From a virus: 64,000 nt of DNA. The translations under genes and the position numbers were made by a program. The stretch spans positions 96,001-160,000 of the IMG/VR virus record IMGVR_UViG_3300002026_002465; one strand, given 5' to 3'. The notes beneath the pieces are model-generated. The model was given only the letters and a program-made list of their open reading frames with translations. It made no database searches and had not been told where the DNA came from. Shown here one piece after another: positions 1 through 16,693 of the stretch (positions are counted from its first letter, which is position 1; every line of letters begins with the position of its first letter).

Positions 1-179
1 ATATAAATCTACAAAATAAATACAATATTTACATTGATGTAAACAAAATGGAATTTTTATAAATAATGATAAATAATCATATTCATTTTTTGTTTCAAAA
101 TAATCATTCCATAATTCATATATTTGTTCTTTTGAAAGAGAATTTTCTTCTGAATCTTGTTGATAATCTGTTTTTAATT

Positions 180-1100
180 CTAACACTTAAATTCCTTGAG
201 TGCATTATCTATATCATTTTCAATAAAAAAATTAGATTTATAATTTCTATATTTTTCTATTCCTGAATTACAATCCAATACTGAATAATTATATTTTTTA
301 TCTAAAACTTCTTTCATTATTTCATATACTAATCCTTCATCATAAACATGATGAAGTGCATCTTTATATACCAAAGCATTTGGATATATTTTTTCTATAG
401 AATCTTTATTATAATCAGTATATTGCACTTCTATTAAATTTAAATGGGATATACCTATTTTATCAAATATTTCAAGATGTGATAACAATAAATCCTTGTG
501 CAAAGGCCATGATGGTTCTTCTATTGTTATAATAAATCCCATTTCTTTTGCATCATACAAATAGTCAAAAACTTTTTTAGAAAAACCACTTGCACTTATG
601 TGCACTCTAAGTTCTTGAATATTCATATTCTTTAATATTAATAAATTTTCTTTATTTAATAACAATCCATTAGTATAAATATGTTTGTAAATATTGTAAT
701 TATTATTTGATTCTATTTTTGAAAGTAATTTTGAAAATTCTTCATATTCATTTAAATATAATAATGACTCTCCCCATGTATTAAATGATACTGTTTTTGG
801 TTTGAAATTTAAATCTAAACTCTTTTTATATAATTCTTTAATTTCAGTTTTTGGAATATCATTGAAATAATCAAGCATTTCATTGTCAATATTATTATAA
901 TAACACATTGGACATTTTAATTGACATTTAGTTCCAACATGAATAGCAAATGATTGATTTGTTTTAAAACAAGATATACATCCTGGAGATATTTTTCCTA
1001 TGTGAATGCAATCACCATTTACATGCTTTTCAAGTTCTGGTATAGATTTTTGAGATTCTAATTTTTTCTGGAAAATATCACTATAAGATACTATTTTCAT
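180..1100 (-). CDS. Radical SAM protein, COG2108-like subfamily
   Basis: CQLKCPMC motif preceded by GKISPGCISC; YTNG and ELRVH barrel motifs. Start moved to the ATG at 1100, which gives an ATGA overlap with the upstream stop. Confidence 0.85.
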   Translation of the reverse strand: MKIVSYSDIFQKKLESQKSIPELEKHVNGDCIHIGKISPGCISCFKTNQSFAIHVGTKCQLKCPMCYYNNIDNEMLDYFNDIPKTEIKELYKKSLDLNFKPKTVSFNTWGESLLYLNEYEEFSKLLSKIESNNNYNIYKHIYTNGLLLNKENLLILKNMNIQELRVHISASGFSKKVFDYLYDAKEMGFIITIEEPSWPLHKDLLLSHLEIFDKIGISHLNLIEVQYTDYNKDSIEKIYPNALVYKDALHHVYDEGLVYEIMKEVLDKKYNYSVLDCNSGIEKYRNYKSNFFIENDIDNALKEFKC

Positions 1101-2629
1101 GTTTTTTCGCCACAAATAACTAAAGCACTAAACTCACCAACATTGAATATATTTTCTATATTATATTTTTCTTTCGTTTTGATTAATCTATCTTCTATAA
1201 AATTTTTGTCAAAAATAACACCATTGTTAAAAACATTATAAATTAATATTATTTTTCCAGAAAATTTATTTTGTTTATATAATTTATATCTAAAATCAAA
1301 TTCATCTAGTGTGTTGTCAATGCCTGCATTAAGAATATAATCAAATTTATGATGATCAATAATACAGTCTTCATCATTGATTGTAAAATTAATTTTCGAT
1401 CCATTAAAAGTTTTTAAAATATTTGCTATTTTAATAGAAGTTTCATCAATATCAAATCCATGTATTAATATATTTGGAAACACTTCTTCTAGAATAAATG
1501 AATTTGTGCCATTATTACAGCAAATATCTAGAATTTTACTTCCAGATTTAATATCTAATTGTTTAAGCAATAATTTTCTAGCACTGTAAGATTGAATATC
1601 ACAGTCAAATAATATTTCATTGTTTAAAATAATAGGTGAAACAAGTTTATTATTCTCTTTTGAATATTTTAATAAATCTAAAATATCTTTTTTATATTCT
1701 ATTGGATAAATATCTAATTCATTTTGATAAAGATCAACATATTCTTTCCAAACACCTAAACATTTATTGTTATATACACATCTTAAACATTCTTGAGGTT
1801 TTTTAAAGTCATATTTAACCATCTCTTTAAAGTCACCATCAGGTTCATAGCCTGGATTGTCATTTACAAGTTCTATACATCTATCATATGATGAATATGA
1901 TTGATATTCTTCTAATGATCCTTCAATTTGATGTTTAAAACCTTGTAAATAACATGGAGGGAAGGCACTTGTATATATTTTATAATAATATTTACTTAAA
2001 ATATTATGAACAATATCTTTTAAGTCTGAATATTTTGGAACAACATTGTAAAAATCAGCCAATGCATTTCCCATAGCATGAGGAAATGTTAAACTTGAAT
2101 TATCAACATTTAACATATGAAAGAAATCAAATGTTTTTTCAAGTGATAATAAATTATATTTTGATATAACCGTTTGTGTTTGTATTTTAAATTTATCAGA
2201 TTTTAAATTAATTAGATTTGATAGTCCATTCAATGTATCATCCCATGAACCTTCTTTTTGACAAATAAAATCGTGTTCTACTTTATCAAAAGAATGTATA
2301 GCTACAAGAAAAGAATCTACATATTTTACAAGTTCTTTTGTAAGATTTATATCTTTAAGTCCAGTGCCATTTGTTTGTAGATCTATAGTGCAACTTGGAT
2401 TTATCTTTTTTATATATTGAACCATATCAACTAAATCTGGCCTTATTGTTGGTTCACCCCCTGTGATAGTGAATTTATCACATGTAGAGTATTTGTCTAT
2501 TATATTTTTCAATTCATCAAGAGAAAAATCAGGTCTATGTGTATATTGTTTTTTATCTGAAACAACACAATGAACACAATTATGATTACAATTCCAGCCC
2601 ACTTTTAAATCAATATGACTTTCTAACAT
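1097..2629 (-). CDS. Radical SAM protein (HxsC-like) fused to a C-terminal class I SAM-dependent methyltransferase
   Basis: CNHNCVHC, TGGEPT, LQTNG and a CLRCVYNNKCLGV cluster; the C-terminal region has ILDICCNNG (motif I) and HGFDID (motif II). Confidence 0.85.
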   Translation of the reverse strand: MLESHIDLKVGWNCNHNCVHCVVSDKKQYTHRPDFSLDELKNIIDKYSTCDKFTITGGEPTIRPDLVDMVQYIKKINPSCTIDLQTNGTGLKDINLTKELVKYVDSFLVAIHSFDKVEHDFICQKEGSWDDTLNGLSNLINLKSDKFKIQTQTVISKYNLLSLEKTFDFFHMLNVDNSSLTFPHAMGNALADFYNVVPKYSDLKDIVHNILSKYYYKIYTSAFPPCYLQGFKHQIEGSLEEYQSYSSYDRCIELVNDNPGYEPDGDFKEMVKYDFKKPQECLRCVYNNKCLGVWKEYVDLYQNELDIYPIEYKKDILDLLKYSKENNKLVSPIILNNEILFDCDIQSYSARKLLLKQLDIKSGSKILDICCNNGTNSFILEEVFPNILIHGFDIDETSIKIANILKTFNGSKINFTINDEDCIIDHHKFDYILNAGIDNTLDEFDFRYKLYKQNKFSGKIILIYNVFNNGVIFDKNFIEDRLIKTKEKYNIENIFNVGEFSALVICGEKT

Positions 2630-2639
2630 TAATTAATCC

Positions 2640-3101
2640 TTATAATGACTTTACGTATTCTATTGCTTTTTCCATATTAAAAAACATTACATCTTTTTTT
2701 GTATATTCATACATGTTATCTTCAATATAATTAAATTCTGGTATTAATGCTTTTTCTTTTTTAATGTCGAAAGTATCATCCTGTTTAGGATTACTTTTAT
2801 CAAAATACTCTTTAAATTTATTAAAATTATTAACTTCAATTGTTTTTATTGAACTATCAAATATAAGTTTCCACCTTGTTTTTACCATTTCAAATTTATC
2901 ATCATCTTTCAGAAAGTTTTTTACTGTCATAATGTCATATACTGTTGGACAGTCTTGTTGTATTATTATTATTTTATTTAAAAGCTCTTTGTAATTATCG
3001 TTTATTACAATATCAATATGACTTTTTATAACTTCATCAATACCATAGCCTATATTATTAATTAAATAAGCGTTTTTTATTTCCTCTCCATTATAATTCA
3101 T
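2640..3101 (-). CDS. Hypothetical rSAM-cluster accessory protein, paralog of 11251-11709
   Basis: 153-aa ORF inside the operon; aligns by eye with 11251-11709 (ID-I-DN, NF..D.F..K...FD....EV, N.+.A+..+K). Confidence 0.7.
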   Translation of the reverse strand: MNYNGEEIKNAYLINNIGYGIDEVIKSHIDIVINDNYKELLNKIIIIQQDCPTVYDIMTVKNFLKDDDKFEMVKTRWKLIFDSSIKTIEVNNFNKFKEYFDKSNPKQDDTFDIKKEKALIPEFNYIEDNMYEYTKKDVMFFNMEKAIEYVKSL

Positions 3102-3999
3102 TGTTTACCTCCCAATTTAAAAATACATTTGTTACAGGTTTTAAAAATTTATCATCATAAATATAATAATAAGATTTATGAATTCCAAGACAATATTCAA
3201 AATGTGTGCATTTTTCACAATTAAAATGAAAAACATTTTCTTTAAATAAATCTCTTATTTGTTTTATTCCATTTTCTTTTTTCAAAGAAGCTAAAATCCA
3301 ATTATATTCTATAGAATATTTAACAAGATTTTTTAATTCACATATAGGAATATATGCTATTCTATATTTACTTTTATCTCTTGAATTACTAATTATAGTA
3401 TTTAATATATTATATACATCACCATATAAAGGTAAAAATTTTTGTATTTCACTTATATCAGCATTAAATGGATTATATACTTTAAAAAAAATATCAGCAT
3501 TTGGCCATTTTGAACTTACATAAGAATTCCATTCCTCCATAGAATCTAAATTTATTTTATTTACAACAACTCCAATTGTTATTTCTTTAAATTTATAATT
3601 ATAAATTTTATCTATTAATTGTATTTTTTCTTTATAAAATACTCTATTACAAAGTTTATCATGTATTTCTTCAATGTGACTATCTAAAGATGTAGATATT
3701 GATATCTTAGATATGTCTCTTTTAATAAACTCATCAAAAAAAGCATTATCATTAAATTTTAATAAATTACTTATCACAAGTATATTATCAAACTTATTTA
3801 GACAAATATCTAATATTTCAAAAAAATCTGGTCTTATAGTTGGTTCACCACCTGTAATAGTTATATTACTACTTTCACATTTAATAATATCTATTTGTTT
3901 TAAAATATCATTTGAAGATGGAATTGGAGAGTTTTTTTCTCCACAGAACTCACAATCTAAATTGCATATTCCACCCAAATTAATATCATTAACAATCAT
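3091..3999 (-). CDS. Radical SAM protein, HxsC-like
   Basis: CNLDCEFC, TGGEPT and C-terminal CEKCTHFEYCLGI. Confidence 0.85.
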   Translation of the reverse strand: MIVNDINLGGICNLDCEFCGEKNSPIPSSNDILKQIDIIKCESSNITITGGEPTIRPDFFEILDICLNKFDNILVISNLLKFNDNAFFDEFIKRDISKISISTSLDSHIEEIHDKLCNRVFYKEKIQLIDKIYNYKFKEITIGVVVNKINLDSMEEWNSYVSSKWPNADIFFKVYNPFNADISEIQKFLPLYGDVYNILNTIISNSRDKSKYRIAYIPICELKNLVKYSIEYNWILASLKKENGIKQIRDLFKENVFHFNCEKCTHFEYCLGIHKSYYYIYDDKFLKPVTNVFLNWEVNNEL

Positions 4000-4658
4000 A
4001 GATTATCTTGATATGTTGCTGGATTAGTGAATACATTTAAATATGTTAAATTAGCATATGCTGTTGCTGTGTTTAAATGACTACTTCCTGTATTAGAATG
4101 ATTTCCATGATTTCTATGGCATGTATAACTTCTAGTATTTGAACTATGTGAGTTGCTATGATTTTGATAACCATTAAGATATGATGGTGCAGGACTATCT
4201 GTATAGTTTGAATAATTAGCATAGGCAGCTACTTGTTTAAGTCTTGTAGCAATTTCATCTATTTTTGATTTTGTAATTACTTCTCCTTCTACAACAGGCC
4301 CAACTGATCCTAACATCCCCATTTCTGACATTTCATCTAATAACCCTGAATATGTTCCATTTATTACACCACTTTGTTCATTAAGATGTTCTTGTTCAAT
4401 TATTTCACTATCTGCAACTTCAGTATCTGAAACACGAGTATATGTTGGAGATCCTGCATACCCAAACTGTATTTTTACAGCTTTTGCATGTTGTCTAAGC
4501 TGTTTTAATGTTTCACCATCTAATTTTGTATCTGCTTTTACTGTTCCATCAGCATTAAAATATGTTGAGTTAAACGGTAAATCTAATGGCCATTTTTTAG
4601 CGGAGTCATCAATTTCAGTAGCTGCATTTGAATAATTTGCGTAATTTACATATCCCAT
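3996..4658 (-). CDS. Putative rSAM substrate/precursor protein (220 aa) with Y/H/F-x-N repeats
   Basis: ATG at 4658 has AGGAG 8 nt upstream; begins YVNYANYSN; the C-terminal ~75 aa hold 12 aromatic-x-Asn motifs; embedded among rSAM genes. The CDS is solid, the function is inferred. Confidence 0.75.
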   Translation of the reverse strand: MGYVNYANYSNAATEIDDSAKKWPLDLPFNSTYFNADGTVKADTKLDGETLKQLRQHAKAVKIQFGYAGSPTYTRVSDTEVADSEIIEQEHLNEQSGVINGTYSGLLDEMSEMGMLGSVGPVVEGEVITKSKIDEIATRLKQVAAYANYSNYTDSPAPSYLNGYQNHSNSHSSNTRSYTCHRNHGNHSNTGSSHLNTATAYANLTYLNVFTNPATYQDNL

Positions 4659-4660
4659 AA

Positions 4661-5605
4661 CTATATCTCCTTTTTTAAGAATCCTAGGCATGGACCTGGA
4701 CACTCTTTGAATAAGAAACAACATTTTTTACATTCTTCAGGTAAACCTTGTGTCGAATATGCTAACCTTTTTCTAAGAAAAAGTTCATTTTCAACTGTAT
4801 TCAATAAAGAATGTTTATCCATATCAACTCTTATGTTTTCTCCTGGATAACAATATTGAACTTCTGATGGATTCAAAATATCAACTGGAATTCCATTTTC
4901 ACAACCATATTTGAACCCTTCAAGCCATTCTAATAAAAATGTTTTTACAGTATTATCTTTGATCATACACGGATAAATTCCGCAATCTAGATTAAATTTT
5001 ACTTTATTTTTTATACCCCAATTAACAAAATCAATAATTCTATCAATATATTCATAATTATTAAAAAAATACATTTTACTATTAGTATCTTTTGGGTTTG
5101 GAAATGGTAAACTTATTCTTGCTCTACTAAACACATCACCTAATTTTTCCTTATACTTATTTAAATTATCTTCATAATATTTAAAATCATAATCAAGATT
5201 GATTGTATACCCTAATCTTATATTAGCATTAGTGTATTTAGATATTAATAGCATGTTTTCAGATGTTAAATCAAACTGTTGTTGAGATACTTCAGAAACA
5301 TTTATTAAAAATCCAAGATTTTTTTCACTTATAAAATCTATAATACTGTTTAAAATTTTTTCTCCAAAAATAAAATTGCTTATTAAAGTAATTTTATTTG
5401 GTAGTGTTTTCAAATAAGATAGTATTTCAACAAAATTTGAATTATTTGTTGGTTCACCACCTAAAAGAGATATGTTATTATTTACAGTCATTTTTTTTAC
5501 AATGTTTTTTACATCATCTAATGACATTTCACTTTTATCTAGAACATCTTTAGCAAAGCAAAAAGAGCATCCTTTATTACATGAAGTAGTTAAGATAAGA
5601 TTCAT
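4661..5605 (-). CDS. Radical SAM protein with C-terminal SPASM/Twitch-like Cys cluster
   Basis: CNKGCSFC, LLGGEPT; C-terminal C..VDI....YCYP and CKKC....CPGPC. Confidence 0.85.
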   Translation of the reverse strand: MNLILTTSCNKGCSFCFAKDVLDKSEMSLDDVKNIVKKMTVNNNISLLGGEPTNNSNFVEILSYLKTLPNKITLISNFIFGEKILNSIIDFISEKNLGFLINVSEVSQQQFDLTSENMLLISKYTNANIRLGYTINLDYDFKYYEDNLNKYKEKLGDVFSRARISLPFPNPKDTNSKMYFFNNYEYIDRIIDFVNWGIKNKVKFNLDCGIYPCMIKDNTVKTFLLEWLEGFKYGCENGIPVDILNPSEVQYCYPGENIRVDMDKHSLLNTVENELFLRKRLAYSTQGLPEECKKCCFLFKECPGPCLGFLKKEI

Positions 5606-6800
5606 TTTTTATTTCATCCTTTAATAGTTCTGATATTTTTAGTCTATTTTTATTAAAAAACTCTGATAACCCTTTATTAAACTCACAAGTTGCATCATCA
5701 ATAATACCTTTTCCATATTTTTGATATGAAAAGCTTAAGCATCCATAATCGCAAAATGCTTGTGAAGAACAAAGATTACATTTTCTTTCTATAACTGCAT
5801 CTGCTTTTGATCTATGAAATTGCCACATTTTATGTGTATGTATTAATTCACCAACATCTTTAGACGTTACATTGCCTGATGATACATTATTACTTTTTTC
5901 AGAATTTCTACCACAAAAAAGAGTTGTTCCATCTGGTTCAACTTCTAATATTCCATTTCCAGCACCACAATATCTCGTATAGCATATATCTCCAACACTT
6001 ATTTCTTGACCAAAACTAATGTTTTCAATATATTTTTTCATTTTATTATATAGAGTTTCTTCTTTAAAGCCCTTATTGTCAAACATAAAATTAATTATTT
6101 TTATTGATGCTTCTAAATTTTCTTGTGCTGTTAACTCAAATTCACTTCCAGTATTTGCAACATCAACAGCCCTATTAATTTTAATAGAATTAAAACCCAT
6201 TGATTGTATCATTCTTAAATCATCAACTATTGTTAAATGATTTTGTTTGTGTAAAATAGATAATAAACCTGGTTGTAATCCATAACCTCTTAATTTTATT
6301 ATATTTTCTAATAATTTACCATTTGCATTCCTATTAGAATCAGAAATTCCAAACCCATCAAAACTCACTCCAGGACTTATATTATATCTTCTAAATATTC
6401 CAATCCATTCATCGTCAATTAAAGTGCCATTTGTTTGCAAAGATATTGCAAGCATTTTTCCATGCTCTCTTGCAAGTTGTGTTGCAATTTTACAAAATGC
6501 AGAAAACTTTTCTTTACCTATTTTTAGTGCTTCCCCTCCATGAAAAACTAAACTTAGTGGATTCCATTTTTGGAGATTTTCAGTTTTAGTATCAGAATTT
6601 AAAGCATCTATTAAACTTTGTTGAGATTCTATATTACCGTGAGATGTTTCTAAAAACCACCTTCTAATAGTATTCTCAAACACCTCATATGACATTGATT
6701 CTTCACTATAGTCATCTTTATGAAACACATAACAATATGAGCACCTTAAATTACACCCTCTTGTAACTTTTAGAATTACTTGTCTAGTATTTTGAAACAT
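5577..6800 (-). CDS. Radical SAM/SPASM maturase (anSME/HxsB-like)
   Basis: TRGCNLRCSYC, FHGGE, QTNG, SFDG; SPASM motifs CYTRYCGAG, EPDG..FC and CNLCSSQAFCDYGC. Confidence 0.9.
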   Translation of the reverse strand: MFQNTRQVILKVTRGCNLRCSYCYVFHKDDYSEESMSYEVFENTIRRWFLETSHGNIESQQSLIDALNSDTKTENLQKWNPLSLVFHGGEALKIGKEKFSAFCKIATQLAREHGKMLAISLQTNGTLIDDEWIGIFRRYNISPGVSFDGFGISDSNRNANGKLLENIIKLRGYGLQPGLLSILHKQNHLTIVDDLRMIQSMGFNSIKINRAVDVANTGSEFELTAQENLEASIKIINFMFDNKGFKEETLYNKMKKYIENISFGQEISVGDICYTRYCGAGNGILEVEPDGTTLFCGRNSEKSNNVSSGNVTSKDVGELIHTHKMWQFHRSKADAVIERKCNLCSSQAFCDYGCLSFSYQKYGKGIIDDATCEFNKGLSEFFNKNRLKISELLKDEIKNESYLNYFM

Positions 6801-6801
6801 T

Positions 6802-7089
6802 TTATTCTCCTATTGTTTTATGCTCATTAAAACCAGATTCACCTATTGGATTTTCAGACTGAATTTTTTCAGATTCAGAAGTAAAATTTTCAATATGACC
6901 TATTAACCTATCAAAACAAACGTCACAATACAAAGATGTTGTTTTTCTACACATACTAGCATCCATTTCACTTTGATTTGTATTTGGGTCTTTAATCCAT
7001 GTTTTAAAATCTATAACTATTTCATGATAATATCTATTTTTATAGATGTTTTTACCACAACCGTCACATTCAACTACTGAGTATTTCAT
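6802..7089 (-). CDS. Small CxxC...CxxC zinc-finger-like protein, paralog of 13975-14199
   Basis: CDGCGK ... YCDVCFD; similar spacing to CTRCKN ... LCDDCFN. Confidence 0.7.
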   Translation of the reverse strand: MKYSVVECDGCGKNIYKNRYYHEIVIDFKTWIKDPNTNQSEMDASMCRKTTSLYCDVCFDRLIGHIENFTSESEKIQSENPIGESGFNEHKTIGE

Positions 7090-8123
7090 AATTTCTCCTT
7101 TGTGTATTCATTAAATTCATCTTCTAATATTTTAATTCCAACCATTATAGAGCAAAAAACATCTCTTGATTCTTTAAACGCTGCATAACATCCTGTTCTA
7201 CAAAAATCTTTTGCTTTACAATCTTCACATGTTTTATCATAAAAATCATTTGATTTAATTTTATCATAATTTGTAACATTAAATTTCATATTAGGAAAAT
7301 CATTAAGATTTAAATATATTTTTTTCTTATCATATTCTAGACCACAATGGGATATTTCACCAGATGGAAAAACTGAAAAAGATAGATGTTTATCAAGACA
7401 GTATTGCTTATTTTTAGTTATAAAATTTAAAAAATCTAAACTGCCAAACTCCAATGCTGTTTTAGCAAATTGTTTTAATAGTGTTTGAACAAAATTCTTT
7501 GCATCTTTTTTAGGTGAAAAGAAATCTATTGAAGTTGAGTGTTCTAATTTTAATGAGTCAAGAAACTTTTTATCTTCTAAAAAAGATCCAGCATTATTTT
7601 CTGATATTGTCCTATTAATAAAAACTTTATTTGGAAATATAGATGCAAACGTCATTAGATTGTTTATTGTTTTATTAAATGATCCTAATCCTCTAACCTT
7701 ATCATGAGTGATTTCACTACTATCTAATGATATGCTTATTTCACTATACATTGCTCCCATAAATTCAATTTGTTCTTTACTATAATCTAAAGTTAAATTT
7801 GTAACAAGAGATAATTCACAGTTTGGTATAGACTTTAATATTAATGTATAATTATAAAAATATTGCCAGTCTAATGTGGGCTCGCCACCATTTATTAAAA
7901 TATGTAATGTATTATCAGGGTGTCTATACATATTAATCATTTGTGTAAAATTATAAAAATTTTCTATTGAAAGCTTTTCTTTTGTATTTTTATGAAATTT
8001 ATTTTCATTATTTTTATGCACACAATAATTACAATTTAAATTACAATCAAAAGATGGAAATATAGTAACATCATCTATTCTTATTTCATTTTTTATAGGA
8101 TTATCAACCTCAAAATAGCTCAT
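7086..8123 (-). CDS. Radical SAM/SPASM protein
   Basis: CNLNCNYC, NGGEPT, ISLD; C....SVFPSGEISHC and CEDCKAKDFCRTGC. Confidence 0.88.
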   Translation of the reverse strand: MSYFEVDNPIKNEIRIDDVTIFPSFDCNLNCNYCVHKNNENKFHKNTKEKLSIENFYNFTQMINMYRHPDNTLHILINGGEPTLDWQYFYNYTLILKSIPNCELSLVTNLTLDYSKEQIEFMGAMYSEISISLDSSEITHDKVRGLGSFNKTINNLMTFASIFPNKVFINRTISENNAGSFLEDKKFLDSLKLEHSTSIDFFSPKKDAKNFVQTLLKQFAKTALEFGSLDFLNFITKNKQYCLDKHLSFSVFPSGEISHCGLEYDKKKIYLNLNDFPNMKFNVTNYDKIKSNDFYDKTCEDCKAKDFCRTGCYAAFKESRDVFCSIMVGIKILEDEFNEYTKEKL

Positions 8124-9058
8124 TTTTTCTCCTTATCAACCATATTTTTAAAATCATTTTCATCATCAAGAACCTCATTTCTATTTACAATATATCTTGC
8201 TCTAACTGTATCGGAGTTACAATCAAGAACTGAAAATTTATAATTTTTATTTATTACCTCTTCCATTATATCATATACAAGACCTTCATCATATAGATGA
8301 TAGTTTAGATTTTTATACATTCTTCCTTCTGGATAAATAGAATTTACTTTTTGAATATTCATTGGAGTTATATCTATTTCATCTAAATTTAAATGTTTGA
8401 CCCCAATAGAATCAAAAAGTTTAATTGCTTCAAACAACTTATCTCTATTGAGCATCCATGATGGTTCTTCTACTGTTACTCTAAATCCATTTTTTGCTGC
8501 ATGTTCCATGTTATTATATACTTTAATTGAAAAATCACTTGCACTTATATGAAATCTTATTTCTTCAATATCTAAATCTTTTAATATTTGAGTGTTATTC
8601 ATATCATATAAAATACCTGTAGTGTATATTCTTTTATGAATATTAATATTTCTTTTTGTTTCAATCTGTTTGATAATTTTTGAGGTTGATAAATAATGTT
8701 CTAAATATAAAAAAGGCTCTCCAATTGAATTATAACATATATTTGATGGAGAGTAATTCTCATCAAAAAGTTTTGAATAATAAAATTCATTTGTATTTAT
8801 AATATCTTTCTCTATTGATTTACTTTCATCAGTATTATTGTGTAATGTTGTGTAATAACACATTGGACATTGAAATGGACATTTATTTCCAATAAAAATA
8901 CTTTTTCTACATGCCTTTTCAGTAAAACATCCTTCACATCCTGGAGATATTTTGCCTATATGAGAAGCAAAACCATTTGCATGAAGTATAAGATTTGGTA
9001 TGTTTTTTTGTCTTAAATATTTTTCATTTAATATAGTTCTGAAATCAACTAAAATCAT
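8120..9058 (-). CDS. Radical SAM protein, COG2108-like, paralog of 180-1100
   Basis: GKISPGCEGC and CPFQCPMC; shares EEPSW, YDEGLVY.IM and SVLDCNS with 180-1100. Confidence 0.85.
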   Translation of the reverse strand: MILVDFRTILNEKYLRQKNIPNLILHANGFASHIGKISPGCEGCFTEKACRKSIFIGNKCPFQCPMCYYTTLHNNTDESKSIEKDIINTNEFYYSKLFDENYSPSNICYNSIGEPFLYLEHYLSTSKIIKQIETKRNINIHKRIYTTGILYDMNNTQILKDLDIEEIRFHISASDFSIKVYNNMEHAAKNGFRVTVEEPSWMLNRDKLFEAIKLFDSIGVKHLNLDEIDITPMNIQKVNSIYPEGRMYKNLNYHLYDEGLVYDIMEEVINKNYKFSVLDCNSDTVRARYIVNRNEVLDDENDFKNMVDKEKK

Positions 9059-9849
9059 GGTATCCTTTTAAAAACACTTGTATTCATTTCAAGAAAATTA
9101 AATTGTGTGCTTCCTTCATAAGAAGGATTTAACAATCTATCAACATCACTGCTCCAATAAAATATTGAATTTGTTCTATTTTTTGAAAAATAGAGATTGC
9201 TCATTATATCTAAAGTTTCATAGCTGGATATATACCAGTTTATATTTTTATAAATCTTATTATCATAAAATTTATTTTGATTATTTACTTCAACATCTCT
9301 TAGGATGATATAATTAAATTTATCAATAATACTTTCTAATAATGTATAATCTTCTTGAGAATATTTAATAAGAGGAATTTCTAATACTGAATTAGATACA
9401 ATATATTTATAATTAAAATCACTCTGAAAAGTATATCTAGTTTCATTTAAGTTAGGATAAATACCATCACTATTAACATATCCAAATGTGTATGTAGATT
9501 CATTTAATAAATCATTATATTCATTTATATAATTAAATGTTTTTATATCAGCATAACCATTTACTGATACAATATGAGGAGATGATTTATTAATTCTAAC
9601 ATAATTAGAAAGATTTTCTAATCTCCACGTTATATGGTCTGATAATTTAGAATTATAATAATTTGCATAATATTGCACTTCTAATAAATATTGAATATAT
9701 TCAGACTTTGGTATAGAGAAAAAGTCTATAAAAGAATAAGGAATATTACCTTTATAAATACAATACCCTGAGTAGTCAGAAATATATGGATATTTTAATA
9801 TAGTCTTATATTTATTTATAAATTCATCTTGAAAATTAATTTTAATCAT
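9055..9849 (-). CDS. Degenerate paralog of the COG2108-like rSAM proteins lacking the Fe-S cysteines
   Basis: GYCIYKGNIPYS resembles GDCIHIGKISPG; KIYKNINWY..LDIM..KN..S...SDVDR resembles RMYKNLNYH..YDIM..KN..SVLDCNSDTVR; no CxxxCxxC. Confidence 0.6.
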   Translation of the reverse strand: MIKINFQDEFINKYKTILKYPYISDYSGYCIYKGNIPYSFIDFFSIPKSEYIQYLLEVQYYANYYNSKLSDHITWRLENLSNYVRINKSSPHIVSVNGYADIKTFNYINEYNDLLNESTYTFGYVNSDGIYPNLNETRYTFQSDFNYKYIVSNSVLEIPLIKYSQEDYTLLESIIDKFNYIILRDVEVNNQNKFYDNKIYKNINWYISSYETLDIMSNLYFSKNRTNSIFYWSSDVDRLLNPSYEGSTQFNFLEMNTSVFKRIP

Positions 9850-9868
9850 TGTTATATTAACTATGCTT

Positions 9869-11185
9869 TTATTTTGAATTAATTATATTCAAAAACTCAT
9901 TAGTTTTATCTAATAATTGCGTATTAAAGTATTCTCCTTTTGATTGAATATTAATATTCAAATTTTTTTTATATTCAAATGTACCCTCATATTCTTTTAA
10001 ATATAGAAATGATTCGAATATATATAAATACAAACCACTTATATTAGGAATATTAGAAATATATTTAAAAAACTCAGTAATTATTTCAGAATCTGATTTA
10101 TAATCATTTATATCAAATTGTTTAAAATATACAGGCTCTTTATTTTTATAAACTTCAATATATTGAAAATCTTGACCTATTTTAGAATAAATATCCACAA
10201 TGTTTTTCATTCTACCAGGTTTAATCTTATTTTCTATTTTAGAACCTATACCTAAAATAGAAAATGTTGGTTCAGATTTTAATATATCATCTTGACTTTT
10301 ATACTGTGGATATATCTTATTTATAAATAAATTTAAAGGTATTGTATTTTTTATTAAATTTACCTTATTAAACTCTCGTAAAATATTAAAAATTTTTTCA
10401 TAAGACAAAGTTTCATCTTTAAATTTAAAAAGTCCAGATGGATAATATCCAAATTTTTTACAAAATTCTAAAATAAATATACAATATGTTTTATATAAAT
10501 CTTCTGATGGATATAATTCCTTATTATTTTTATCTGAAAAACTATAATCAATTGCTAAATTAATTTCATCTACACCCATGGAAGCAACATTAAACATATC
10601 ATAAATCATTTTTTCTACATGATCTTTTTCTTTCCAAAAGATTATAAAGTCGGTTAAAACATATATATTTTGTTTTTTAAAATCTGAAATAATTTTAGGA
10701 ATATTCTCATAATTTTTATATATCCTATTTTGCTTTTTTAAATATTCTTTATCAAAAGTCTGTATACAAAGAATAATAGAGTTAAAGTTGTATTCGCCAA
10801 GAAGTAACGATTGTTCTTCTATATAAGCAGACGGATGAATTTCCATTAGTTTTGATTCTATTTGTTTAAAATTTGGAATTTTTTCAAAAACCATTCTCAT
10901 GTCATCTATAGACATAATATTAGCCGTTCCGCCACCAAAACAATATGTTTCAATTTCTGAATTCGCAATTATATTAGAATAAAAATCAATTTGAGATATT
11001 AAATATGTAATATAATCTTGATATTTAGTACTTTCTTCATAATTTTGAGATATTATTGAACCATGAAAAGGACAATATAAGCAATTAGTGAAGCAAAATG
11101 GATTATGCACATAAACTCTTACAGGAGTGTTATTAAACTCCCATAAATCTAAAATAGATTCTTTTAATATTTCTTGTAGTTTCAT
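9869..11185 (-). CDS. HemN-like (class C) radical SAM protein
   Basis: VYVHNPFCFTNCLYC, FGGGT, CIQTF and LGIGS match HemN-family signatures. Confidence 0.8.
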   Translation of the reverse strand: MKLQEILKESILDLWEFNNTPVRVYVHNPFCFTNCLYCPFHGSIISQNYEESTKYQDYITYLISQIDFYSNIIANSEIETYCFGGGTANIMSIDDMRMVFEKIPNFKQIESKLMEIHPSAYIEEQSLLLGEYNFNSIILCIQTFDKEYLKKQNRIYKNYENIPKIISDFKKQNIYVLTDFIIFWKEKDHVEKMIYDMFNVASMGVDEINLAIDYSFSDKNNKELYPSEDLYKTYCIFILEFCKKFGYYPSGLFKFKDETLSYEKIFNILREFNKVNLIKNTIPLNLFINKIYPQYKSQDDILKSEPTFSILGIGSKIENKIKPGRMKNIVDIYSKIGQDFQYIEVYKNKEPVYFKQFDINDYKSDSEIITEFFKYISNIPNISGLYLYIFESFLYLKEYEGTFEYKKNLNINIQSKGEYFNTQLLDKTNEFLNIINSK

Positions 11186-11194
11186 TATAAGAAA

Positions 11195-11220
11195 TATGCT
11201 TTTTCAAATGAAAAAGCATA
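11195..11220. promoter_or_regulatory. Perfect 12-bp inverted repeat between the divergent rSAM operons
   Basis: TATGCTTTTTCA-AA-TGAAAAAGCATA in the 65-bp divergent intergenic gap. Confidence 0.6.
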
Positions 11221-11250
11221 AATTTATGTTTTTTTTCATAAGATAATAAT

Positions 11251-11709
11251 ATGATAAAAATAACAACTATTGATAATATATATGAAGTGCTGCAAGATAC
11301 TACAAGTGTTGAAGAAAGATGTGAAATTGCTATAAAATTAATTGATACTATTATTAAAGATAATTTCAATGAGTATTATATAATTTTTTTAGATAATTAT
11401 AACGTTCCAGTTCAGTGGAGTGATTTTGAGAATTTTTGTATAAAAGAAAATTTAGATTTTGATAAATATAAAAAGTTGACTAATCAATGTTTCGATAAAG
11501 CAACATTATATTTAGAAGTTGTTGATCTAGAAAAAATAAAAATCAACTACCCAAAGGATAAATTTCCAAAAGATGTAAATAACTACACTCCTTATGGATA
11601 TAGTAACTATCCAAATAGATTCAGAATTTATAATAGAGACATCGCCATGGATCTTATTAAAAACTACTCTCTACAAGAACTAGAAAAGTATAGTCATGAT
11701 TTATCATAA
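11251..11709 (+). CDS. Hypothetical rSAM-cluster accessory protein, paralog of 2640-3101
   Basis: 152-aa ORF; motif similarity to 2640-3101; directly upstream of an HxsC-like rSAM. Confidence 0.7.
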   Translation: MIKITTIDNIYEVLQDTTSVEERCEIAIKLIDTIIKDNFNEYYIIFLDNYNVPVQWSDFENFCIKENLDFDKYKKLTNQCFDKATLYLEVVDLEKIKINYPKDKFPKDVNNYTPYGYSNYPNRFRIYNRDIAMDLIKNYSLQELEKYSHDLS

Positions 11710-11746
11710 GTAAGGCATATTTTAGTAGTTAGTAATAGAGGTAAAA

Positions 11747-12718
11747 ATGCTTAAATGTTTAGATCTTGAAACGGAAAACACCAATGATTATTGGGGTTCA
11801 ATAATTATTTATGGGCACCAAAAATGTATGAATACTTGTTTGTTTTGTTCAGGTAAAAACGAATCAATTGATGATGATACTATAAAATATAAAAAAGCAA
11901 TTTATGATGCTGATTATTTAATAAGTAGTGGTGTAAATAAAATAGAAATATCTGGTGGAGATCCAGGTGAATTTAGTATGATTGTTGATGTTGTGTCTTA
12001 TTTAAAAACTAAAGGTATTAAAACAATTCAATTATCAACACACGGAAGAACTCTTATTAATGAAAATTTTGTAAAAAAATTAAAGGATGCAGGTGTTACT
12101 TTGTTTAAAATACCATTATATGGTAGCACACAAGAAATACATAATAAAAGTGTCCAGGTTGATAATTCAATAGATAATGCTTTTTCAGACACAATTACAG
12201 GTATTAAAAATTGTAATAAACATGGCATGAGTATAATAGGATATATTTTATTAAATCAATATAATAAAAATGATATTACAAATATAGTAAGATTATATTT
12301 AAGCATCTCAAATTATATTTATAAAATAATAATAGGAATAACATTTATTTCAACTGTTGAATATAGTTATACAAGAGATTGGTTTTTACCAATAAAAGAT
12401 ATGAAACCATATCTTGAAGATATATTGATTGAATTTTCTAAAAATAATATAAATTTTGAGATGATTGATATTCCTTATTGTGCTATTGGTAAGTATTCTG
12501 AAAATATAGATAATAGACTTATTTTTCCAAATCTTGGAAATCATAAAGTAGAAGAACAAAATAGATCAACAATTTCAGATTTTATTCCTCATTATAGAAT
12601 TAAATCATATTTTAATGAATGTAATTCTTGTAACTTAAAAAATCTATGTAGTGGTATTCCAATCAATGAAATTAAAATGTTTGGAATATATGGACTTGAA
12701 GGAGTTGGAAGTGTTTAG
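11747..12718 (+). CDS. Radical SAM protein, HxsC-like
   Basis: CMNTCLFC, SGGDP, LSTHG, DIPYC and C-terminal CNSCNLKNLCSGI; GAGG Shine-Dalgarno. Confidence 0.85.
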   Translation: MLKCLDLETENTNDYWGSIIIYGHQKCMNTCLFCSGKNESIDDDTIKYKKAIYDADYLISSGVNKIEISGGDPGEFSMIVDVVSYLKTKGIKTIQLSTHGRTLINENFVKKLKDAGVTLFKIPLYGSTQEIHNKSVQVDNSIDNAFSDTITGIKNCNKHGMSIIGYILLNQYNKNDITNIVRLYLSISNYIYKIIIGITFISTVEYSYTRDWFLPIKDMKPYLEDILIEFSKNNINFEMIDIPYCAIGKYSENIDNRLIFPNLGNHKVEEQNRSTISDFIPHYRIKSYFNECNSCNLKNLCSGIPINEIKMFGIYGLEGVGSV

Positions 12719-13973
12719 ATTTACAGATTTAATTATATTTAGATTAACAAGGGGGTGTAATCTAAATTGTAAATATTGTTTTATGCAAAATAAAGAAGAA
12801 TATAAAAATGAAAAAATAGATTTTGAACTTTTTAAAAAAATAATAGATAGAATTATAGAACAAAGACTAATAAATTCAAAACATACACAACTATCACTTG
12901 TTTTTCATGGTGGAGAATTTTTAACTATAGGGAAAAAAAGCCTGTATGAAATTTTAGAATATACAACTGCCCAAATGAATCTAAATAATATAGATTGTGA
13001 ATTAGGTTGTCAAACAAATGGGGTATTATTAGATGATGAAATTGCAAAAATATTAAGTAAATTTAGTGTAGGAATAGGACTTAGTTTTGATGGTGTAAAT
13101 GGTTCTAATGACTTGCGTGATATTAAACAGGAAATATTTGAAAGCAAGTTTGAAATATTAAAGAAAAATAAAAACAATTTTGGTTTTCTTATCATTGCAA
13201 ACAAATCTAATATTGATAAAATCCAAGATTCACAAGATTATATTAAAAAGTTAAATAGAACAAATGGATATAAAATAAATTATTCTGAAGATATGATAAA
13301 TCCTGGTGAAAACAGTGAAATAGAAGTCTCTGGTAAAGAAATGTTTGAGAAAGTTTTTAAGCCAGAATTATTACGTATTTTAAAAGGAGAACAACCTGAA
13401 GAACATAACACAAAAGAACTTTTAACAAAAGCAATAATAGATATTTTATCATATCATGAAAATGGCACAAAATCAGGTTGTGGCACTAAATGGTGTGGTG
13501 CTGGTATCTCAATGATAGCAATAGAGCCTGATGGTGAAATGGATTATTGTGATAGATATTCCAAAAAATTTTCTGAAACATATATTCAACATGCTTTAGA
13601 TTATGATTTTTTAGGTATATATCAATTAAATAAAATGATACAATACAATAAAATGAAAGCTAAATTATATAATAATTATGAGTGTGATACTTGTTATGCT
13701 GATTATATATGTAATCATGGTTGTGAATCATTTTATTATTCTAAATATGGTGAATATGGAATTGATACTAGACTAGTGTGTGATCAGTATAAAATGTTTT
13801 ATAGTTTTGTTCTAGAAAATATTGTTGAATTTGTTAAAAAACGTGAAATTGTTTCATATGCAAATGATACTATAATTAAGATTAGACCAAACATTAATTA
13901 CTTATTTTTTTCTTATGGAATTGACTTGATAATAACAGATGATAAAAAAAGCATAATTATTAAAAGGACATAA
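12711..13973 (+). CDS. Radical SAM/SPASM maturase (anSME/HxsB-like), paralog of 5577-6800
   Basis: TRGCNLNCKYC, FHGGE, QTNG, SFDG, CGTKWCGAG, EPDG..YC and CDTCYADYICNHGC. The GTG start at 12711 after GGAG gives MFRFT, matching MFQNT of the paralog. Confidence 0.9.
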   Translation: MFRFTDLIIFRLTRGCNLNCKYCFMQNKEEYKNEKIDFELFKKIIDRIIEQRLINSKHTQLSLVFHGGEFLTIGKKSLYEILEYTTAQMNLNNIDCELGCQTNGVLLDDEIAKILSKFSVGIGLSFDGVNGSNDLRDIKQEIFESKFEILKKNKNNFGFLIIANKSNIDKIQDSQDYIKKLNRTNGYKINYSEDMINPGENSEIEVSGKEMFEKVFKPELLRILKGEQPEEHNTKELLTKAIIDILSYHENGTKSGCGTKWCGAGISMIAIEPDGEMDYCDRYSKKFSETYIQHALDYDFLGIYQLNKMIQYNKMKAKLYNNYECDTCYADYICNHGCESFYYSKYGEYGIDTRLVCDQYKMFYSFVLENIVEFVKKREIVSYANDTIIKIRPNINYLFFSYGIDLIITDDKKSIIIKRT

Positions 13974-13974
13974 C

Positions 13975-14199
13975 ATGAATAAAAATTATTGTACTAGATG
14001 TAAAAATGAAATTATAGATATGGCAATTATAGTTGATTTTAAAATAAGTGTTGGAAGAGTAAAAAATAGTGGAATATTTGAAAACATTCCAAATCTTGAA
14101 AACAACTCAAGAGAAGTTTTATGTGATGATTGTTTTAACAAGTTTTCACTTTTAATGGAAGGCTTAAATATAAAATACAATAAAAAAGTGGAGAATTAA
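13975..14199 (+). CDS. Small CxxC...CxxC zinc-finger-like protein
   Basis: CTRC ... CDDC; paralog of 6802-7089. Confidence 0.7.
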   Translation: MNKNYCTRCKNEIIDMAIIVDFKISVGRVKNSGIFENIPNLENNSREVLCDDCFNKFSLLMEGLNIKYNKKVEN

Positions 14200-14945
14200 T
14201 GATATTAATAGCAGGACCTTGTGTTCTAGAAAATAAAGATATGCTTGATAAAGTTGCATCTTATTTAGTAGAGTTTAAAAAAGATAGTGATTTTTATCTT
14301 AAGGCATCATGTGTTAAAGATAATAGAACAAAGACCAATAATTTTAGTGGTCTTGGTTTTGAAAAGTGTTTAGATATATTTATTGAGATAAAAAATAAAT
14401 ATGGAGTGAAAATAACAACTGACTTCCATAATGAAGAGCAGTTAGAAAATTATGGTATGTATTTTGATCTTATTCAAATACCGGCATTCTTGGCAAGACA
14501 ACAATCTCTATTAAAAAAGGCTGTTGAATTGAATTTGCCTATCCATGTCAAAAAATCTCAATTTACATCACCATATAATACTATAGATATTGTAAGCATA
14601 TTAAAAGATTTTGGGCACTCTGAAGAAATAATGATAACTGATAGAGGAACTCAGTTTGGTTATGATAGAGTTATTATGGATCCACGTCACATTGCTTGGA
14701 TGCAAAATGATGGAGCTAAAACATTAGTTGATATAACCCATCCTAATAAACTCCTTGGGGAACCTTTAAAGTTAGCTAAAATATTAGCTGAATCTTATAT
14801 GATGGCAGGAGTAAATGGTGTATTTTTAGAAACACATCCAAACCCTGCAGAGGCTCTTTGTGATGCTGATACTCAAATTAATATAGATGATTCTGTTGTT
14901 CTAATAAGGAAATTATTAAAACTAGAAAAGTATATAAAGGAATAA
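14199..14945 (+). CDS. kdsA: 3-deoxy-D-manno-octulosonate 8-phosphate synthase-like (metal-dependent type)
   Basis: IAGPC, KAS..K.NR, TDFH, QIPAFL.RQ, VKK.QF, RG..FGY, D.TH and FLETHP.P..ALCD. Confidence 0.9.
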   Translation: MILIAGPCVLENKDMLDKVASYLVEFKKDSDFYLKASCVKDNRTKTNNFSGLGFEKCLDIFIEIKNKYGVKITTDFHNEEQLENYGMYFDLIQIPAFLARQQSLLKKAVELNLPIHVKKSQFTSPYNTIDIVSILKDFGHSEEIMITDRGTQFGYDRVIMDPRHIAWMQNDGAKTLVDITHPNKLLGEPLKLAKILAESYMMAGVNGVFLETHPNPAEALCDADTQINIDDSVVLIRKLLKLEKYIKE

Positions 14946-15680
14946 TTGATAAATAACTCAGTTGGTATAATACCTGCAAGATTGGATAGTACAAGATTTC
15001 CTAATAAATTATTCTCAAAACTAGACAACATTCCTATATTACAAAGAGTTATAGAGAATATATTAAGTGCTAATGTTGTAGATAAATTAATAATTGCTAC
15101 AGATAGTAAGCGAGTTATTGATTTCTGTAAATCATTTAATGTTGAATGTTTTTATATGGAGGATATGGTTAGTTGTGGGAGTGAAAGAGCATATTATGTT
15201 TATCAAAAGTATCCAAACTATGATCAATACATAACATTCCCTGCAGATGAACCCCTTATCAACCCTGATGAAACAAAAAAATTGTTTAAAGATTATGAAG
15301 TTAAAGCTCCTGTGACAACATGTTATTCAGACTTTCACTCAATGGATAGACTCCTTGATCCTAAATCTTGTAAAATTGTTTCTAATAAAGCCAACCAAGT
15401 ATTGTATTTTTCACGCTCTCCAATACCATGGTCAAAGACTGGATTATTAGATATAAAAGAGTATAAGAAACATGTTGGTGTGTTTATATTTGAAAATGAA
15501 TTTTTTACTAAATATAAAGATCAGTGGAAGAGTGACTTGGCAGATAAAGAAGGATTAGAACAAATTGCTTTTATAGATAATAATATACAAGTTAATCTAA
15601 TGAAAATAGAGCATAAATATTATGGAATAGATTCTCCAGAAGATATAATAAAAATAGAAGAATTAATGAGGCAAAAATGA
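14946..15680 (+). CDS. kdsB: CMP-KDO synthetase (3-deoxy-manno-octulosonate cytidylyltransferase)-like
   Basis: IIPARLDSTRFPNK, DEPLI, LYFSRSPIP, KHVG and LEQ motifs; TTG start. Confidence 0.88.
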   Translation: MINNSVGIIPARLDSTRFPNKLFSKLDNIPILQRVIENILSANVVDKLIIATDSKRVIDFCKSFNVECFYMEDMVSCGSERAYYVYQKYPNYDQYITFPADEPLINPDETKKLFKDYEVKAPVTTCYSDFHSMDRLLDPKSCKIVSNKANQVLYFSRSPIPWSKTGLLDIKEYKKHVGVFIFENEFFTKYKDQWKSDLADKEGLEQIAFIDNNIQVNLMKIEHKYYGIDSPEDIIKIEELMRQK

Positions 15681-16297: not shown

Positions 16298-16660
16298 ATG
16301 GCAAAAGGAATTGGATTTTACGATAAGAAATTTTTATTAATAAAAAAAGACAAAGAATTGGTTGCTGAGTCTATAACGAGGATTATAATGACAAATCCTG
16401 GTGAAAGAGTTGGCCAACCATTTTTTGGTGTAGGGTTAAGAAATGTTTTATTTGATCAGGTTGATGCAACAACAAAATCTAATTTAAAAAAGACTATTAT
16501 TGATCAATGTTCAACATATGAACCAAGAGCTGACATAACAGATGTTACTTTTGAAGAATTAACTGATAACAACACTATTATTGTTAAATTAAGTTTTCTT
16601 ATGGATGGAGATACTCCTAAAAATGTAAATATTTTAACATATAATTTTAGCTTACAATAG
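16298..16660 (+). CDS. Baseplate wedge subunit, gp25/GPW-like
   Basis: I..I+.T.PGER..QP.FG..L...LF and YEPR motifs; 120 aa. Confidence 0.88.
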   Translation: MAKGIGFYDKKFLLIKKDKELVAESITRIIMTNPGERVGQPFFGVGLRNVLFDQVDATTKSNLKKTIIDQCSTYEPRADITDVTFEELTDNNTIIVKLSFLMDGDTPKNVNILTYNFSLQ

Positions 16661-16693
16661 ATGGAAAAATATATTTTGATTAAGAGGTAAATA

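Follow-up and report, generated by a model that had tools for sequence, protein, structure and literature searches.

The window analysed here, a 64,000-nucleotide stretch of a viral record in IMG/VR, belongs to a 178-kb microbial-mat phage contig with an estimated completeness of 74%. The contig carries 11 radical SAM (rSAM) genes in total, all in one 15-kb block that is flanked by a tail-fibre gene on one side and by kdsA, kdsB, a transaldolase gene, and baseplate gp25 on the other (Table 1). The preliminary description listed ten CxxxCxxC open reading frames (ORFs; starts at 1100, 2629, 3999, 5605, 6800, 8123, 9058, 11185, 11747, and 12711). All ten are present, but the cluster holds 11 enzymes, as a HemN-like rSAM crosses the window's left edge. 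The PF04055 cut-off (Pfam) is passed by nine of the ten ORFs within the window and by 10 of 11 overall; the exception, at 8120-9058, has the CxxxCxxC motif, a domain E value of 1.6e-4, and a paralogue at 180-1100 that passes. As described earlier, the genes form two divergent, closely packed runs, with junctions that overlap or span at most 20 nt, apart from 37 nt before 11747. The gap between the runs (66 nt) contains an inverted repeat, and a promoter scan gave matches at chance level. Neither a transporter nor a peptidase was recognised in the cluster, again as first reported; three ORFs (153, 264, and 152 aa) have no family match, and no membrane helix was found in any accessory ORF. One contig of a public run, possibly from the same source sample, covers the whole region with one base different. 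The tail-fibre gene has no Pfam match; its chaperone-like end was recognised by a motif in common with window positions 41581-43113, which match Peptidase_G2 weakly (E = 0.0012).

Table 1. Features of the rSAM block and its right-hand flank (window coordinates)
Feature	Position	Strand	Basis or remark
HemN-like class C rSAM (eleventh), 366 aa, accessory	1..186 (genome 95086-96186)	-	5' end in window; relatives in L005 and L007 at 35 to 37% identity
rSAM without family assignment, accessory	180..1100	-	PF04055; 45% identical to paralogue 8120-9058
HxsC-like rSAM + class I methyltransferase fusion, accessory	1097..2629	-	PF13847 at 360-445
153-aa ORF	2640..3101	-	no Pfam, PHROG, or NCBIfam match
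HxsC-like rSAM, accessory	3091..3999	-	HxsC 60 of 268 bits
Repeat protein, 220 aa, predicted substrate	3996..4658	-	motif counts, locus conservation
Core rSAM 2	4661..5605	-	own family, conserved C-terminal cysteines
Core SPASM rSAM A, predicted cross-linking enzyme	5577..6800	-	PF13186, family scores
Core four-cysteine zinc-finger-like partner A	6802..7089	-	positional relatives, predicted model
SPASM-type rSAM, near-core	7086..8123	-	positional relatives
rSAM without family assignment, accessory	8120..9058	-	paralogue of 180-1100; weak rSAM matches
264-aa ORF	9055..9849	-	no family match
HemN-like (class C) rSAM, accessory	9869..11185	-	HemN/HutW-type matches below cut-off
11-bp inverted repeat	11195..11220	.	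in gap between divergent runs
152-aa ORF	11251..11709	+	no family match
HxsC-like rSAM, accessory	11747..12718	+	HxsC 89 of 268 bits
SPASM rSAM B	12711..13973	+	31% identical to A; YhhB 99 of 445 bits
Zinc-finger-like partner B, paralogue of partner A	13975..14199	+	sequence comparison
kdsA, kdsB, transaldolase/FSA	14199..16270	+	Pfam; linked module, same slot in L005, L057, L143
Baseplate gp25 + wedge subunit	16298..18967	+	PF04965; PHROG baseplate wedge; right-hand slot anchor

The repeat protein had been credited with 17 aromatic-x-Asn motifs, a count that holds, and 16 of them are Y/H-x-N, compared with 2.3 expected from shuffles (P = 0.0002). The last 81 residues hold 12 motifs versus 2.7 in shuffles (P = 5e-5), and at 6.6 motifs per 100 aa the protein ranks first in the genome (median, 0.33). 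Y/H-x-N exceeds shuffles in 15 of 16 members of the repeat-protein family, in which the +2 residue is Asn for 45% of Tyr and 47% of His, with Ser at +2 after only 5% of His. The xenorceptide motif has Asn at +2. The gene has the Shine-Dalgarno sequence GGAGA, and its product begins with Y-x-N triplets, continues with a folded helical domain (residues ∼20 to 145), and ends in a Y/H-x-N tail that contains a variable loop and, at the C terminus, a conserved motif; both ends flanking the domain are predicted to be disordered. The protein contains one Cys and has a tail of neutral charge, and no leader, signal peptide, membrane helix, or peptidoglycan-binding domain was detected in it.

Searches of Pfam, NCBIfam, PHROGs, PDB sequences, and cultured phages returned no match to the repeat protein, nor did pattern scans of IMG/VR and JGI contigs detect one, and the phage genome holds no paralogue. 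A fusion to a long fibre was not found either, the search for longer forms giving only three members of 281 to 288 aa, which is weak evidence. Fold searches with the helical domain, including PDB and BFVD, yielded nothing above background (best Z = 5.3, a generic helical match; all Foldseek E values > 0.7), and a Myoviridae "SCIFF" protein from BFVD (E = 1.1) is no more than a lead. A three-unit internal repeat is visible in the domain by eye and is not significant in self-alignment.

We compared gene neighbourhoods. A four-gene core of less than 3.1 kb, with the zinc-finger gene first, followed by those for SPASM A, rSAM 2, and the repeat protein, is found in 10 other complete loci and one partial locus. 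In nearly all close loci, the gene for rSAM 2 immediately precedes the repeat gene, and in all three loci fetched through close rSAM 2 orthologues (L141, L148, and L149) the repeat gene lies directly behind; in L002 it stands between accessory-type genes. Because this core is conserved, the repeat protein is the likely substrate, as had been proposed, and a link between the enzymes of the block and this protein is highly probable. The neighbourhood survey called for in the preliminary description thus finds the core with its repeat gene in at least 10 related loci, and therefore the virus probably applies cross-linking chemistry of the kind known from antibiotics to a protein of its own. The core is limited to two or three of the enzymes; the remaining rSAMs are swappable, and the accessory types (HxsC-like, HemN-like, and B12) vary across loci. 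In a 388-kb relative (L057; 98% complete), an rSAM 2 homologue occupies the corresponding slot and there is no match to the repeat protein anywhere, and single-enzyme matches in Vibrio D479, Thermus phiLo, and a 735-kb phage have no aromatic-x-Asn-type substrate nearby. Pairwise identities of enzymes and repeat proteins correlate (rho = 0.88 and 0.78; seven loci), for which shared descent alone suffices. Similarly, kinship confounds the His-x-N/S counts, which are 4 to 8 in tails beside HxsC-like genes and 0 to 1 in five loci where B12-type enzymes take the place of these.

Both SPASM A and SPASM B lack an N-terminal RRE, have eight SPASM cysteines, and carry CxxxCxxC at residue 16; in other genomes, SPASM B serves as the core enzyme of a sister type of cassette. 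Genes 37 to 41% identical to that of partner A precede SPASM A in six loci (L005, L006, L007, L010, L148, and L149). The predicted model of partner A is confident, with a weak treble-clef/ZAD likeness (Z = 3.9); an RRE/PqqD-like domain was considered and found no support, as the model resembles a treble-clef zinc finger instead, with weak matches only. Positional relatives of the near-core enzyme at 7086-8123 have lost CxxxCxxC in L006, L010, L141, and L149.

The suggestion that the rSAMs are of the Xye/Grr/Fxs type survives in part: cyclophane-forming families are the nearest to SPASM A and B, but none of the enzymes is a member of the Xye/Grr/Fxs/Yhh families, all scores falling far below the curated cut-offs. 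SPASM A scores 108 of 450 bits for DynA, 81 of 445 for YhhB, and 77 of 450 for XyeB, and among the triceptide-synthase models (XyeB, GrrM, FxsB, YhhB, and AmcB) the best scores are YhhB 99 of 445, XyeB 77 of 450, FxsB 67 of 370, and GrrM 62 of 310 bits. The dynobactin and darobactin cut-offs are not reached (DynA, 108 of 450; DarE, 64 of 650), and the thioether formers PapB and QhpD score about as well as the cyclophane families; with its one Cys, the repeat protein is not a Cys-rich substrate of the ranthipeptide/CXXX-repeat kind. The triceptide synthases XyeB, GrrM/OscB, FxsB, YhhB, HaaB, and HtkB form three-residue cyclophanes (PMC11499958). The block shares with these and with DynA an RRE-less SPASM enzyme and an adjacent substrate with aromatic-x-x motifs, Tyr or His first. 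Unlike them, it scores at 17 to 24% of family cut-offs, its predicted substrate is folded, is 220 aa long, and carries its 17 motifs at both ends, no leader, protease, or transporter is recognised (with three ORFs lacking a family match), and it includes a zinc-finger partner, a phage tail module, and up to nine more rSAMs. As SPASM A and SPASM B both find their best matches in cyclophane-forming families, we lean toward reading the block as a maturation cassette whose core would cross-link the repeat protein, which would stay whole and join the virion. On its own, an aromatic-Asn cross-link in this protein seems probable.

A dynobactin maturase as the best match of SPASM A could instead point to a true RiPP, with a host or distant phage protease freeing the tail and a polycyclic peptide released at lysis against competitors or the host envelope. 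Lysis could stand in for a transporter, the variable loop between conserved motifs looks like a core region, and cellular relatives have short leader-bearing precursors. We nevertheless consider this improbable: the motifs flank a folded domain here and stand before it in the sister type, the extreme C terminus is retained in 9 of 16 family members, and none of the loci compared shows a recognisable protease, transporter, or conserved cleavage motif.

The proposed likeness to HxsB and HxsC also holds partially. Three accessories are nearest to HxsC, but none is a family member (TIGR03977/03978): scores in the block are at most 49 of 370 bits for HxsB and 94 of 268 for HxsC, with 119 of 500 for HxsC4, the latter two from the fusion enzyme at 1097-2629, whose relatives in L007 and L143 lack the methyltransferase. 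The same HxsB model passes its cut-off on L070, where distant rSAM 2 relatives lie beside true HxsB and HxsD-like genes (a His-Xaa-Ser cassette); other distant relatives adjoin Y/H-x-N/D peptides in cellular (bacterial) contigs. Neither the small ORFs nor the repeat protein matched HxsD or HxsA. In bacterial HXS systems, which block the entry of phage DNA, two rSAMs and a small helper accompany a His-x-Ser repeat protein (PMC13128918). The cassette resembles them (HxsA-D, TIGR03976-03979) in pairing a SPASM enzyme and another rSAM with a small helper and with a repeat protein that would likewise be modified at the protein level, and in the HxsC-like enzymes of the block. It differs in having Asn for Ser, a four-Cys zinc finger rather than HxsD as the helper, core enzymes that are neither HxsB nor HxsC, and no export signal or peptidoglycan-binding domain, and it is phage encoded, whereas HXS is bacterial and antiphage. 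With this comparable make-up and three HxsC-like accessories, the modified protein might act inside the infected cell, for example by blocking superinfection in the manner of HXS or by serving as a decoy for host defences; the IMG/VR class of the record (provirus) and sister cassettes in two Margulisbacteria assemblies would fit. This seems unlikely to us, however, as the repeat protein shows neither a signal peptide nor a membrane helix nor a peptidoglycan-binding domain, its tail is neutral whereas HxsA is basic, and the cassette keeps to the tail module, even the Margulisbacteria copies following genes with weak baseplate-motif matches.

The number of rSAMs, initially thought to be without precedent, is equalled in Campylobacter phages CP220 and CPt10, which carry 11 and 12, five of them in one cluster (PMC2853527). 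These 175- to 180-kb myophages also have their exchangeable cluster near baseplate genes, but only five enzymes lie together, alongside sugar transferases and an amidinotransferase, and there is weak similarity to just one enzyme of our block; the part of the CP220 region examined showed no aromatic-x-Asn protein. That cluster, with sugar transferases and, in the same part, no repeat protein, is consistent with several accessory rSAMs tailoring a Kdo-type sugar from kdsA-kdsB-transaldolase for virion glycosylation, a role that leaves the core free to act on the repeat protein. In our block, kdsA and the gene for zinc finger B are translationally coupled, L143 interleaves carbamoyltransferase, aminotransferase, and SPASM enzymes with kds genes, and L005 has similar neighbours. 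Yet many core loci have no visible kds genes, and HxsC-like and HemN-like families occur beside the repeat gene where kds genes are unseen (L001, L002, and L007), so that Kdo tailoring appears improbable.

For the rSAM genes of Campylobacter and Thermus phages, DNA modification or cofactor roles have been put forward (PMC2853527, PMC11437467). The three-gene module of Thermus phages Cumys and phiMa is similar in its SPASM-type enzyme and small conserved neighbours; it differs in having one enzyme (∼24% identity) and a DUF483 partner, and its authors suggest DNA modification (PMC11437467). The block contains weak HemN-like and MoaA-like matches, and its enzymes could modify phage DNA or boost host cofactor metabolism, the repeat protein being incidental. 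The strict linkage to the repeat gene makes this very improbable. No enzyme passes the cut-off of a nucleotide- or cofactor-modifying family, an affinity named earlier as a counterargument to a protein substrate, and DpdA/TGT and QueC had no match in the contig (74% complete), whereas positive controls matched. A search for HMUDK gave no match anywhere and is uninformative.

Returning to the maturation cassette, its position beside tail and baseplate genes is conserved in related loci: the slot between a fibre with a chaperone-like end and gp25 is occupied here and in L057 and L143, and a fibre or gp25 lies within a few genes of the cassette in L005-L010, L064, and the P0016 contig. Because of this slot, the motifs at both termini, the lack of a leader, signal, or membrane helix, and the weak, reciprocal relationship of the helical domain to the carrier domain of other phages' Cys-tailed rSAM neighbours (hhalign, 16%), we somewhat favour a location of the repeat protein in the virion. 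Against this, tail regions of phages take up many unrelated genes. In the proposed maturation, the SPASM enzymes, each aided by its small zinc-finger partner, would abstract hydrogen from the Asn at i+2, which would then be joined to the ring of the Tyr or His, giving strings of three-residue cyclophanes (−2 Da each) at both disordered ends. Core rSAM 2 would perform a second, always-required step, and the HxsC-like, HemN-like, and methyltransferase accessories would tailor the tail by one-carbon additions and methylations and be swapped between phage lineages along with the tail sequence. Rather than being cut to a small peptide, the protein would retain its folded three-unit helical domain and would most likely sit on the tail or baseplate, forming a rigid and variable appendage that resists proteases, for example a fibre-tip cap. 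T2/S16 gp38, a small adhesin with an attachment domain and variable loops, docks on gp37 after cleavage of the C-terminal chaperone (PMC7917993). It is an architectural analogy only: no sequence or fold similarity to the repeat protein was found, and gp38 needs no rSAM, while a fibre whose end is chaperone-like is the usual neighbour of the cassette.

Cross-linking by rSAM enzymes has been described for peptides and for a small number of proteins of bacteria but is not known from virus particles. We found nothing relevant on phage rSAM modification of peptides or tail fibres in the openly searchable literature, in which such chemistry by a phage on its own protein is undescribed. If our reading is right, the cassette offers several uncharacterised enzyme families (rSAM 2, the zinc-finger-assisted SPASM enzymes, and the HxsC-like enzymes) with an obvious, soluble substrate. 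Tentatively, large phages may build a virion appendage by RiPP-type radical chemistry, with swapped enzyme-substrate cassettes setting host range or particle stability; up to eleven rSAMs would then give poly-cyclophane, methylated ends to a lineage-specific recognition element encoded in a fixed slot of the tail module. If true, this would provide a testable function for clusters of rSAM genes that have been a puzzle in phage genomics since 2010 and add an extra layer to how phages diversify host recognition.

The window covers positions 96001-160000 of a 177,948-bp phage contig that is present in microbial-mat metagenomes of one study. An ORF scan of the window recovered the ten CxxxCxxC ORFs of the preliminary description, all between positions 180 and 13973. 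A search of the whole contig raised the count to exactly 11 radical SAM (rSAM) genes, all inside 15 kb, the addition being a HemN-like enzyme that runs from window position 186 past the left edge. The leftward gene run of the block extends from 11185 down to genome position 95086, and the rightward run begins at 11251 and continues through kdsA, kdsB, a transaldolase gene, gp25 and a baseplate wedge gene. Very long fibre-like genes lie to the left, and the end domain of the nearest one carries a weak motif of an autocleaving chaperone; two further fibres also end in this chaperone-like domain. The kdsA-kdsB-transaldolase module, probably a virion glycosylation pathway, is conserved immediately ahead of gp25 in a number of related phages (L005, L057 and L143; L numbers denote loci or contigs fetched for comparison), and in L143 carbamoyltransferase, aminotransferase and SPASM genes are mixed into it. 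Elsewhere in the genome, hemerythrin-, response-regulator-, STAS- and MshEN-like small genes and lipoproteins, all recognized by eye, suggest a spirochaete-like host.

Coordinates of the features discussed (window positions unless a genome or locus is named)
Feature	Coordinates	Strand	Remark
Repeat protein gene	3996-4658	-	220 aa
rSAM 2	4661-5605	-	core
SPASM A	5577-6800	-	core
Zinc finger A	6802-7089	-	core
345-aa rSAM	7086-8123
Its relatives without CxxxCxxC	L006:6576-7406; L010:351-1166; L141:4739-5545; L149:3609-4475
SPASM B	12711-13973	+
Zinc finger B	13975-14199	+
kdsA-kdsB-transaldolase module	14199-16270
4528-aa ORF	25571-39157		tail region
Fibre next to the cassette	genome 92340-95024
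Further fibres	41581-43113; 45896-49006
191-aa ORF	49006-49581		after tail fibre; no Pfam match
8-oxoguanine DNA glycosylase	61179-61862		PF22175, E 1.6e-51
Small genes (hemerythrin-, response-regulator-, STAS-, MshEN-like)	genome 15670-16059, 31465-31863, 49566-50054; window 23521-23727
Fibre-like protein with Cys-rich tail	L141:29-1828		599 aa
His-Xaa-Ser cassette	L070:8344-14135
CP220 CPT_0080	L145:10691-11677		Campylobacter phage rSAM

The aromatic-x-Asn-rich ORF described in the middle of the cluster is the genome's top ORF for Y/H-x-N, with 16 such motifs versus 2.3 in shuffles. Its AlphaFold model has a confident helical domain (residues ∼20-145) and two disordered ends; three motifs precede this domain, two lie within it and 12 follow. 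Fold searches, PHROG and PDB sequences gave no match to the helical domain. Across the repeat-protein family (16 representatives, plus three from a later search), the helical domain and the motif run directly behind it are retained, and usually (in 9 of 16) so is the C-terminal motif; the mid-tail differs between members in its length and in how much Trp, Cys and Arg it contains. Counted over the family, 45% of Tyr residues and 47% of His residues have Asn at +2.

Zinc finger, SPASM A, rSAM 2 and repeat gene stand in this order also in L005, L006, L007, L010, L141, L148 and L149, in part in L001, and, judged by gene size and Pfam only, in the contigs of three repeat-protein relatives (P0003, P0015 and P0016). 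Three of these loci (L141, L148 and L149) were retrieved via the enzyme rather than the repeat protein, and in all three the repeat gene lies directly behind the enzyme. As the enzymes of the core loci are only 33 to 57% identical to those of the window, the loci represent distinct lineages. The case for an enzyme-substrate link between the core and the repeat protein is strong. In a sister type of cassette, with zinc finger B and SPASM B, triplets stand in front of the helical domain (L061, L143, L150 and L151; similar in L058). The window has both zinc finger-SPASM pairs, yet a single substrate gene. The sister cassettes of L150 and L151 come from Margulisbacteria/Termititenax assemblies; there, genes with weak hits to baseplate motifs precede the cassette and glycosyltransferase or aminotransferase genes follow it.

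The noncore genes vary between loci and include B12-type, HemN-like and HxsC-like enzymes and a carbamoyltransferase; in the window, three enzymes are nearest HxsC, two are nearest HemN/HutW and one has a fused methyltransferase. Tails with four to eight His-x-N/S motifs have HxsC-like neighbors and those with zero or one have B12-type or related neighbors, with L005 intermediate, a pattern amounting to one or two independent contrasts at most. Relatives of the 345-aa rSAM that have lost CxxxCxxC are still retained in front of the zinc finger and are possibly catalytically dead scaffolds.

SPASM A and B have eight SPASM cysteines each and no RRE. Their top models are DynA and YhhB, with PapB, QhpD and anSME little lower and every score far below the cutoff. 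The zinc fingers have treble-clef-like predicted folds rather than RRE-like ones. In cellular contigs, distant rSAM 2 relatives occur beside a SPASM enzyme, a 200- to 290-aa ORF and a short precursor in which Y-x-N/D repeats are densely packed behind a basic-hydrophobic leader (L099, L111, L112, L114, L121, L122, L125, L131, L132 and L139). Two of these precursors had no match in NCBIfam, and the cassette is a candidate undescribed RiPP family. Another distant relative, in L070, accompanies a genuine HxsB (above the cutoff), two HxsD-like genes and a His/Cys repeat protein with H-x-S/N motifs. The rSAM 2 family therefore tracks aromatic-x-polar repeats well beyond phages. Exceptions are L064 and L084, where Cys-tailed proteins take the place of the repeat protein, and the 388-kb phage L057, which gave no match to it.

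Triceptide synthases join an aromatic residue to the C-beta at +2 (-2 Da) (PMC11499958), and a His-x-Ser repeat protein is matured by HxsB/C/D (+8 Da), with the small HxsD bound by HxsC (PMC13128918). HemN-like enzymes are established as methyl or cyclopropyl donors in other pathways (PMC9062424). By these triceptide and His-Xaa-Ser precedents, the SPASM enzymes, assisted by the zinc fingers, would cross-link Tyr/His to Asn of the repeat protein, rSAM 2 would perform a second, obligatory step and the accessory enzymes would add carbon. Neither a protease nor a transporter was recognized in the cassette loci examined. As the motifs also flank a folded domain and the last residue block is conserved, the repeat protein seems to be itself the final product, uncut.

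The most likely place of the repeat protein is the virion. The cassette slot between fibre and baseplate genes is fixed here and in L143. L057 shares the fibre and kds/gp25 anchors with this genome, but its slot is filled by another set of three rSAM genes, and its genome gave no match to the repeat protein. In our survey, many viral SPASM loci adjoin Cys-tailed proteins or His-x-Asp array proteins. A profile of the Cys-tailed proteins' carrier domains alone placed the repeat-protein family at ranks 1 to 7 of 259, and the reverse search placed those domains at ranks 1 to 5 of 260, with no single score significant in either direction. Neighbors with a Cys-rich tail and a helical carrier domain were seen in L016-L023, L026, L028, L036, L043, L049, L050, L052, L064, L084 and L141, in the last of which the tail forms the end of a fibre-like protein. 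The His-x-Asp or Tyr/His-x-Asp/Asn array proteins (295 to 785 aa, up to ∼130 motifs; L011, L013, L014, L029, L044 and L046) directly precede SPASM enzymes. By analogy, the repeat protein may be a fibre-tip cap resembling gp38 (PMC7917993).

The number of rSAM enzymes is matched by Campylobacter phages CP220 and CPt10, which have 11 and 12 (PMC2853527); their cluster, however, comprises only five, with sugar enzymes, and the region of it that was read holds no such repeat protein. In CP220, a stretch rich in Cys lies close to the C-terminus of the rSAM CPT_0080 itself. A literature search that covered few subscription journals turned up nothing on the maturation of virion proteins by rSAM enzymes of phages. 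The cassette would operate in the manner of a triceptide or His-Xaa-Ser pathway but belongs to neither family, its enzymes scoring below the cutoffs. The block is real and conserved, and is probably an undescribed variant of rSAM repeat-protein maturation.
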